Shown: piece after piece, positions 25,304-25,538 of the stretch
How positions within the stretch are numbered: the first letter of the stretch is position 1
Layout: each line of letters begins with the position of its first letter
DNA from: a virus
Lineage: Duplodnaviria; Heunggongvirae; Uroviricota; Caudoviricetes
Reading direction: 5' to 3' (one strand)
DNA length: 25,637 bases
Virus record (IMG/VR): IMGVR_UViG_2671181122_000005
Coordinates: 1 to 25,637 of that record
The notes under the pieces: generated by a model
The model's database searches: none
The model's input: the letters and a program-made list of their open reading frames with translations, nothing else
What the model was told of the DNA's origin: nothing
Translations under genes and position numbers: made by a program

Positions 25304-25499
25304 TGTCTCACCCTTTACTGTGATAACTGTTACGCACAAAAACAACAGGCATCCCGGAGGATGCCTGTATCATCACTGAATAAAAATTCTGAATATCTTC
25401 ACATTTTCACAAACTGACTGTGGTACTAATAATTTCTCTGCGTTAATGTTTTTTGTCGTGACATAAGAATAATTCTCTATAGTTAATCTTCGTAACTCT

Positions 25500-25532
25500 C
25501 CCGCAGCTCCGCAACACTGCGGGATTTTTTTA
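25500..25532 (+). terminator. Plus-strand intrinsic terminator inside the AT-rich gap between the I and J genes (antisense to the tail operon)
   Basis: cccgcag...ctgcggg hairpin followed by ttttttt on the plus strand. Confidence 0.45.
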
Positions 25533-25538
25533 TTCTTT

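Follow-up and report, generated by a model that had tools for sequence, protein, structure and literature searches.

What occupies the AT-rich interval between the tail genes I and J of a lambdoid phage, and does it carry a gene of its own? We analysed this interval in a stretch of viral DNA of 25,637 nucleotides (Caudoviricetes; IMG/VR record IMGVR_UViG_2671181122_000005, positions 1 to 25,637), referred to here as the window, in which the tail genes are read on the minus strand. A preliminary description had noted an AT-rich stretch of about 235 bp separating I and J, with a clean plus-strand terminator antisense to the tail operon, and had proposed that it could mark a small plus-strand RNA or the remnant of a moron. 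The data presented here indicate that the gap very probably holds a moron-like cassette, with its own promoter and terminator, making a plus-strand small RNA (sRNA) antisense to the late tail operon. The cassette would be a divergent allele of the locus that encodes PasB in enteropathogenic Escherichia coli (EPEC) and EcOnc22, EcOnc23 and EcOnc24 in enterohaemorrhagic E. coli (EHEC).

The non-coding gap, with limits set by the RefSeq annotation of an identical copy, corresponds exactly to positions 25304-25538 (235 bp), between the start codon of J at 25303 and the stop codon of I at 25539. The identical copy belongs to E. coli O55:H7 RM12579 (100% identity over 235/235 bases), and this identity is confined to the gap, the remainder of the window matching at 93-96%. 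The G+C content of the gap is 0.374, compared to 0.580 for J and 0.596 for the end of I. An AT-rich separation of about 235 bp (37% G+C) is then borne out, while the two genes, which had been said to abut in lambda, are in fact 60 bp apart in that phage.

A homologous gap carries a validated sRNA in EPEC E2348/69. PasB is an sRNA of 83 nt (NC_011601.1, 1466343 to 1466261, minus strand), located between E2348C_1436 and E2348C_1437, that was seen on northern blot, was bound to Hfq and was reduced in the absence of Hfq, with log2 fold changes of pasB without hfq of -6.8 and -2.4, and that had 37 partners in RIL-seq, which ligates and sequences interacting RNAs (Pearl Mizrahi et al. 2021, Sci Adv, PMC8550237, Table S6 for the coordinates). 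In RefSeq, E2348C_1436 and E2348C_1437 are I and J, and PasB lies in their 240-bp gap, in antisense orientation, 6 nt from the I stop. The alignment of this gap with that of the window showed a mean column identity of 89%, and placed the two ends of PasB at window positions 25454/25455 and 25531. The PasB northern probe, AATCCCGCAGTGATCGCGGAGCT, matches the reverse complement of window 25503-25524 with one mismatch and one deletion. The two alleles share the I-J location, the antisense orientation, a 3' end equally placed relative to the I stop, and a homologous upstream box, -10 element, ARN repeats, UURAUCUUC motif and terminator. They are 74% identical over the RNA and 55% in its body, the longest exact word in common is 17 nt, and the CUCCUU stretch of PasB reads UUCUCU in the window allele. 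In uninduced EPEC, the baseMean of pasB was 482 and 1082, compared to 4.8 for I and 15 for J (PMC8550237). Reads so far above those of the flanking genes without induction indicate that transcription is autonomous in E2348/69. The expression and Hfq binding of PasB are experimental, whereas those of the window allele are predicted by analogy.

EHEC Sakai provides a second comparison. EcOnc22, EcOnc23 and EcOnc24 are homologous plus-strand RNAs cross-linked to Hfq, of which EcOnc22 migrates at ~85 nt on northern blot and is less stable when hfq is absent (Tree et al. 2014, Mol Cell, PMC4104026, Table S2). By their coordinates, they map to the I-J gaps of the Sakai prophages Sp15, Sp14 and Sp11, where the tail genes are on the minus strand, and these three gaps are homologous to that of the window. 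As the published coordinates refer to NC_002695.1 and our comparison was made on NC_002695.2, the offset was calibrated on AgvB and HnrS; the Rfam match of AgvB at 1941920-1941981, against a published peak at 1941783-1941835, gives an offset of ~+137. The lengths of the two chromosome versions would give ~+128 genome-wide. With an offset of +128 to +146, all three Hfq cross-linking peaks are located on the predicted RNA body, upstream of the terminator. With a zero offset, the peaks are still inside the gap, on the antisense strand, and no plus-strand terminator other than the PasB-type one is evident in the aligned gap sequence. EcOnc22-24 resemble the window element in being encoded between I and J of lambdoid prophages, on the strand opposite to the tail genes, and in the length of the predicted RNA, 91 nt in Sakai and 92 nt here. 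EcOnc22 and the window allele are 76% identical overall and 64% in the body and, unlike the window, the Sakai allele presents no TTCACA -35 element.

The window element therefore combines the I-J location, the antisense orientation, homology that includes the terminator covered by the probe, and a terminator beside the I stop. By position and homology, it belongs to the PasB/EcOnc22-24 family. From the alignment and the offset-corrected coordinates, we conclude that a single locus encodes PasB and EcOnc22-24 as alleles, to which the window adds another; this equivalence is not stated in the searched text of either of the Pas papers cited here. In the part of the supplement of Zhu, Shabalina and Storz (2026, bioRxiv 10.64898/2026.05.13.724894) that was searched, nothing was found for the window-type body, the Sakai-type body, PasB-2 or PasB-3. 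The comparison of the I-J junction in related phages, which the preliminary description had proposed, thus leads to homologous gaps that carry validated sRNA loci. The small plus-strand RNA that it had expected to end near 25532 gains support from homology to two such loci of the same position and orientation, the 3' end of PasB corresponding to 25531. The moron idea is likewise strengthened by the presumptive promoter and terminator of the element, its deviant base composition and its absence from lambda, with the qualification that the product would be an RNA and not a protein.

Could the gap instead be protein-coding, either as an extension of I in another frame or as a small protein moron? 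An open reading frame (ORF) of 87 aa does exist on the minus strand (25373..25636), and the preliminary description had considered that I might run through the gap in this frame. The frame differs from that of I, which stops at 25539 with a C-terminus (...VVVIGRQR*) resembling that of lambda gpI (...VVVIGR*). In homologous gaps, the 87-aa frame is interrupted by stops and by indels of 1, 2 and 8 nt, and the ORF was rejected as a real gene. On the plus strand, the ORFs within the predicted RNA have at most 6 codons, with no ribosome-binding site, and are not conserved. A coding function is, on these grounds, extremely improbable.

The anatomy of the element was examined across homologous gaps. 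These were obtained by scanning IMG/VR with the terminator pattern, which gave 119 loci and, together with the other copies fetched, 60 distinct gap sequences. The features of the window are as follows, with the mean pairwise identity among gaps where it was calculated.

25380-25406, plus strand: upstream box (ATAAAAWTTCTGAA..TCTTCACATTT), left boundary of the cassette and most conserved non-coding block of the gap; identity 0.92, compared to 0.61-0.69 for the neighbouring non-coding blocks.
25406-25433, plus strand: candidate promoter of the sigma-70 type, with -35 TTCACA at 25406-25411, a 16-bp spacer and -10 AATAAT at 25428-25433; start predicted near G25440.
25407-25427: -35 and spacer; identity 0.69.
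25428-25433: -10 element; identity 0.89, with positions 2-6 conserved at 97-100%.
25434-25453: leader; identity 0.81.
25440-25531, plus strand: predicted sRNA of the PasB/EcOnc22 family, 92 nt from the strong promoter, or ~77-78 nt if the start is at 25454/25455.
25444-25449, plus strand: alternative weak -10 TAATGT (family pattern TANTKT), which would start the RNA at ~25455; its first T, its A and its final T are conserved at 97-100%.
25454-25482: body; identity 0.66.
25465-25473, plus strand: A-R-N (ARN) repeats AAG AAU AAU, a motif type bound by Hfq in Tree et al. 2014.
25483-25493, plus strand: conserved motif UUAAUCUUCGU (called the UUAAUCUUC motif), directly upstream of the terminator, a candidate seed or Hfq-contact region; identity 0.87, compared to 0.66 and 0.45 for the adjacent blocks.
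25494-25499: pre-terminator; identity 0.45.
25500-25531, plus strand: intrinsic terminator, with stem CCCGCAG (25500-25506) / CTGCGGG (25517-25523), a 10-nt loop, an A, then U7 (25525-25531).
25539-25565: 3' end of I, for comparison; identity 0.71.

The clean plus-strand terminator antisense to the tail operon, as first described, is confirmed at 25500-25531 by its GC-rich stem of 7 bp and its U7 tract. Over 24900-25637, a consensus scan detected 3 terminator-like sites, compared to 0.9 expected from shuffled sequences. Downstream of the same hairpin, the tail-operon strand reads AGAGUUACG (AGAGTTACG), the U-run being present on the plus strand only, and so the hairpin is predicted to terminate only plus-strand transcription. 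The predicted RNA is antisense to the tail operon and its 3' end is 7 nt short of the I stop codon. The promoter-like site TTCACA/AATAAT, which had escaped the preliminary description, presents 10/12 matches to the sigma-70 consensus in the scan.

The predicted RNA consists of a long unstructured A/U-rich body followed by the terminator. In an RNAalifold analysis of 16 diverse alleles, the terminator was the sole shared structure and the UUAAUCUUC motif was unpaired in the family consensus; no covariation and no pairing beyond the terminator were obtained in this set, in part because the homologues had been selected by the terminator pattern. In the fold of the window allele itself, a part of the UUAAUCUUC motif is paired with the ARN region. 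The body columns AARAAYAA (25465-25472), which cover most of the ARN repeats, are conserved at 80-100% among alleles. Repeats of this type would be expected to contact the distal face of Hfq. Their binding by Hfq is described in Tree et al. 2014 (PMC4104026), and by analogy the window allele would bind Hfq through its U7 tail and its ARN repeats.

Taken together, these features suggest how the element may work. Transcription of the sRNA in the lysogen would not depend on the late operon, which is silent there, and would end at the U7 terminator beside the I stop. Hfq would then bind and stabilise the RNA, with the 3' U-tail and the ARN repeats as contacts, and the RNA would act in trans, its largely unstructured body pairing with mRNAs of the cell or of prophages. 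Candidates for the pairing are the conserved UUAAUCUUC motif and the variable stretch that precedes it, and the divergent body may give the window allele a different set of targets.

The orientation of the element suggests another possibility, in which the RNA acts mainly in cis. It would pair with the I-J intercistronic part of the late mRNA after induction, or head-on transcription would interfere with that of the late genes, and either would tune or gate the expression of J and of the downstream tail-fibre and effector genes, with trans partners being secondary. By construction the RNA runs antisense to the tail operon and can pair along its full length with the I-J part of the late mRNA, its promoter points against the direction of late transcription, and the locus is always found at the I-J junction. 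However, over 130 nt separate the RNA from the J ribosome-binding site (25454 compared to ~25310), which excludes direct masking, and PasB is abundant when the late genes are not expressed, with 37 Hfq-dependent partners in trans. Moreover, no I-J chimeras are present among the RIL-seq rows listed, under the locus tags searched. We consider a mainly cis-acting role unlikely, and a trans-acting, Hfq-bound sRNA accounts better for these observations.

There are two candidate positions for the 5' end, ~25440 and 25454/25455. A start at ~25440, from the near-consensus -10, would give RNAs of 92 nt (window), 91 nt (Sakai) and 98 nt (E2348/69), the last of these alleles having a perfect TATAAT as its -10. 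The upstream box contains an imperfect palindrome, TCTGA-N6-TCACA (25388-25403), with 9/10 of the core bases of the site for the cAMP receptor protein (CRP; TGTGA-N6-TCACA) and one mismatch. Its half-sites are invariant and its two central bases are variable across the 60 gaps; approximately one comparable match is expected by chance in the window, and the palindrome is not significant alone. Its centre is at -44.5 from a start at 25440, or at ~-59.5 from 25455, neither of which is a canonical CRP distance (-41.5 or -61.5). Spot 42 is repressed by CRP. In EPEC, PasB was higher in the non-activating condition, and Spot 42 was lower there (Pearl Mizrahi et al. 2021, PMC8550237). The increase of PasB where Spot 42 decreases, taken with the repression of Spot 42 by CRP, fits an activation of PasB by CRP; the comparison is confounded in this respect, the growth conditions differing in more than cAMP. 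CRP control through the conserved palindrome is then a tentative lead that we do not accept as a finding. The upstream box could equally be the site of another regulator, or a conserved recombination linker at the module boundary.

To the left of 25380, at least 5 unrelated flank classes are found, one of them with ~190 bp of additional DNA before J, and since the left flanks are unrelated beyond this position, the mobile unit corresponds to ~25380-25538. Judged from the alignments, the mobile cassette is this segment, anchored to the end of I. Breakpoints also occur within the cassette, as in O157 strains, where 98% identity to the window extends to 25454 and gives way to a different body. 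One such strain, E. coli O157 180-PT54 (NZ_CP015832.1, ~2678970-2679235), has a decayed locus that has lost the terminator loop (CCCGCA actc TGCGGG) as well as I and K, so that the gap adjoins a truncated L, and in which J is frameshifted. Its promoter side, 98% identical to the window as far as 25454 and then joined to another body allele, indicates a recombination joint inside the cassette.

The family occurs in 1426/5426 complete E. coli genomes, at 3279 places, with at most 8 per genome, and in 149 phage records, mostly of Stx1a, Stx2a and Stx2c phages. The window allele itself, at an identity of at least 95%, is present in 19 records of complete E. coli genomes. Among the matches listed in complete E. 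coli genomes, no annotated feature was found on the copies of the family. An Rfam search of 24900-25637, on both strands and with E-values up to 1, gave nothing in the gap and one chance snoRNA match inside J, and the E2348/69 and Sakai gaps gave no match either, Rfam having no model for the family. A covariance or profile model built from all the alleles would remedy the missing annotation. In a scan of GTDB with one genome per species, the promoter box was found in E. albertii only, apart from three tiny contaminant-like contigs, which agrees with the restriction of the family to Escherichia/Shigella reported by Zhu et al. (2026). These contigs, of 0.5-3.4 kb, are in assemblies of Asaia platycodi, Parendozoicomonas haliclonae and Streptomyces flavalbus, are 78-98% identical to the phage I-J region, and are almost certainly E. 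coli contamination; one of them carries an IS629-like end inserted in the PasB promoter.

The published census of PasB was made by BLAST with a word size of 28 and a coverage above 75%. As the longest word shared with PasB is 17 nt, such a search would miss the window allele, and would also miss the Sakai allele; this word-size limit may be the reason why the census places PasB mostly outside EPEC and EHEC. It is conceivable, and we put it forward with reserve, that one I-J locus combines a fixed, regulator-controlled promoter box and an Hfq-binding 3' module with a pairing body that is swapped by recombination, so that each lambdoid prophage brings a different sRNA specificity. The window would then be a rare specificity without the anti-Shine-Dalgarno-like CUCC. 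If bodies are swapped in this way, the published counts of PasB are substantially too low and wrongly imply its absence from EHEC.

Several points weigh against assigning the window element to a functional sRNA of this family. The RNA evidence comes entirely from homologues, and the window allele is inferred by analogy to be expressed and Hfq-bound. A search by sequence fragments for the EcOnc22 northern probe in the supplement of Tree et al. 2014 did not find it, so the link to EcOnc22 rests on the coordinates and an inferred offset (~+128 to +146). Because the homologues were chosen by the terminator pattern, the conservation of the terminator is uninformative. Both the annotated 5' end of PasB (NC_011601.1, 1466343) and the start of the offset-corrected Sakai peak correspond to window 25454/25455; an end at this place would come either from use of the weak second -10 (TANTKT, 25444-25449) or from 5' trimming of the RNA. 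The -10 of the window is AATAAT and not TATAAT. The CUCC stretch, present in 88% of the sampled alleles, is lost from the window body (UUCUCU), which is 55% identical to that of PasB and 64% to that of EcOnc22, and with this divergence and loss the targets of the characterised alleles are not transferable. Finally, PasB itself has no assigned function (Zhu et al. 2026).

Some of these points would also suit a window copy that is a decaying, non-functional allele, unexpressed or no longer regulating. Such a reading would explain its rarity (at least 95% identity in 19 records, compared to 1426 genomes for the family), the change of the first base of the -10 to A, and the diverged body without CUCC, and other copies do decay, as in the O157 strain with the terminator-loop deletion and loss of I and K, and in the contig with the IS629-like end in the promoter. 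On the other hand, the window retains the upstream box, positions 2-6 of the -10, the ARN repeats, the UUAAUCUUC motif, the 7-bp stem and U7, and an A at position 1 of the -10 is found in 23/60 distinct gaps, including the expressed Sakai allele. A dead allele is, in our opinion, quite improbable, and an intact, divergent allele of PasB/EcOnc22-24 is the interpretation that we retain.

The gap exhibits a second hairpin, on the opposite strand, also absent from the preliminary description.

25335-25368, minus strand: hairpin ACAGGCATCC tccg GGATGCCTGT with a U-rich tail, TGTTTTTGTG (UGUUUUUGUG), 32 nt upstream of the J start codon.

Its stem (25368 to 25345) has a free energy of -19.3 kcal/mol (z = -4.5) and is stronger than the plus-strand terminator. 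One compensatory pair change is observed, T-A here compared to C-G in E2348/69 and Sakai, and intermediates with a single change exist. In a third class of gaps, an unrelated hairpin, CCCCGGTATC tgct GATACCGGGG, followed by TTTCTCTTT, is found at the same position. The I-J gap of lambda (NC_001416, 15445-15504) likewise presents, on the strand of the tail operon, a GC-rich hairpin followed by a U-rich tract, some tens of bases ahead of the J start. The lambda hairpin is a positional counterpart of window 25368 to 25335; beyond the ribosome-binding site and start of J there is no detectable homology, and lambda has no sRNA cassette. That the 60-bp lambda gap is a deletion remnant of the cassette was considered and rejected, the alignment being homologous only at the J ribosome-binding site and start. 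The presence of a hairpin and U tract at the same place in lambda and in the third class points to an older feature of the junction that is not part of the insertion. A hairpin with a U-rich tract, in three unrelated sequence versions, seems to be a conserved part of the architecture of this junction. The hairpin resembles a terminator on the tail-operon strand, which the Q-modified polymerase is expected to read through. In the program-made list of ORFs, J starts at TTG 25345 (1171 aa), whereas the true start, according to RefSeq and lambda, is ATG 25303 (MGKGGGK..., 1137 aa), and the 14 surplus codons of the listed ORF pass through this hairpin.

The lambda hairpin, found where there is no cassette, would favour the idea that the hairpins of the gap are merely insulators or mRNA-stabilising structures of the tail operon, with no discrete RNA. 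For the hairpin at 25500-25531, this is highly improbable, since its U-run is on the plus strand only and since it forms the 3' end of validated RNAs in two strains. The plus-strand hairpin is better understood as the terminator of the sRNA.

In the wider window, the gene order is that of vegetative lambda, with early genes, integrase and a gap, and then, on the opposite strand, effector genes, tail fibre, lom, J and I; it is not a prophage junction. No colinear copy of the whole window was found among the complete genomes or phage records of the collections searched; for the chromosomes, this follows from the vegetative (attP) gene order. Two type III effector genes lie on the minus strand downstream of the tail fibre, NleF (17874-18443) and an NleH-like ORF (18629-19333; 234 aa, covering profile positions 28-247 of 304), followed by an unassigned stretch of ~0.8 kb and the convergent integrase (16021-17046, plus strand). 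The early region contains a Septu-type defence pair (4096-6091, minus strand), composed of PtuA (4718-6091; PADLOC E = 1e-165) and PtuB with an HNH domain (4096-4740; E = 1e-83), which adjoins a sok/hok RNA element (Rfam sok, 3777-3951, minus strand). Immunity RNAs of the P1/P7 type are found on the minus strand, namely the C4 antisense RNA (775-859), its a1/b1 targets (923-975) and isrK (885-962), followed by an ORF (160-720, minus strand) with an ORF6N (antirepressor-like) domain. This set is an antisense-RNA-controlled antirepressor module in a lambdoid phage. A gene for the DicF sRNA (12590-12641, plus strand; Rfam, 72.5 bits) lies in the early-left region, near a RecE-like exonuclease gene (13285-15759).

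Several prophage-encoded sRNAs are comparable to the PasB family. AgvB, AsxR and HnrS are also short Hfq-associated RNAs that are expressed in lysogens, with multiple copies in a genome, and in AgvB and AsxR, as in the PasB family, the 3' part is conserved and the 5' part variable. They occupy loci different from the I-J gap: the anti-sRNAs AgvB and AsxR are at the moron site downstream of PR', and HnrS (EcOnc10-12) is after Rz. Identity with AgvB (RF02702) or AsxR (RF02703) was rejected on the basis of this PR' site and of the lack of an Rfam match in the gap, and the other Rfam-curated sRNA families (STnc100, Esr41 and the rest) gave no covariance-model match there. HnrS was also rejected, being a 66-nt RNA with a CUUCU seed and unrelated sequence, encoded after the Rz endopeptidase gene in Sp9.

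With regard to the moron, a concept of Juhala and Hendrix (cited in Tree et al. 2014, PMC4104026), the element is alike in being an insertion between genes that are nearly adjacent in lambda (60 bp compared to 235 bp), with a predicted promoter and terminator, a G+C content of 37% compared to 58%, and a homologue expressed from a repressed prophage. It differs in its cargo, a non-coding RNA of ~80-90 nt with no conserved ORF, and in its orientation against the host operon.

The element is therefore a refinement of a known but poorly characterised kind, and not a new kind of system. What is modestly new is the equivalence of PasB and EcOnc22-24, the diversity of alleles between fixed promoter and terminator anchors, and the conserved upstream box. 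The alignment joins two sRNAs that had been described separately, PasB of EPEC and EcOnc22-24 of EHEC, and its constrained parts (upstream box, -10, ARN repeats, UUAAUCUUC motif and terminator), as opposed to the free ones (the body; the -35 also varies), point to where a seed and a regulator may be sought. If the body alleles differ in their targets, the prophage content would alter the post-transcriptional network of the host strain by strain.

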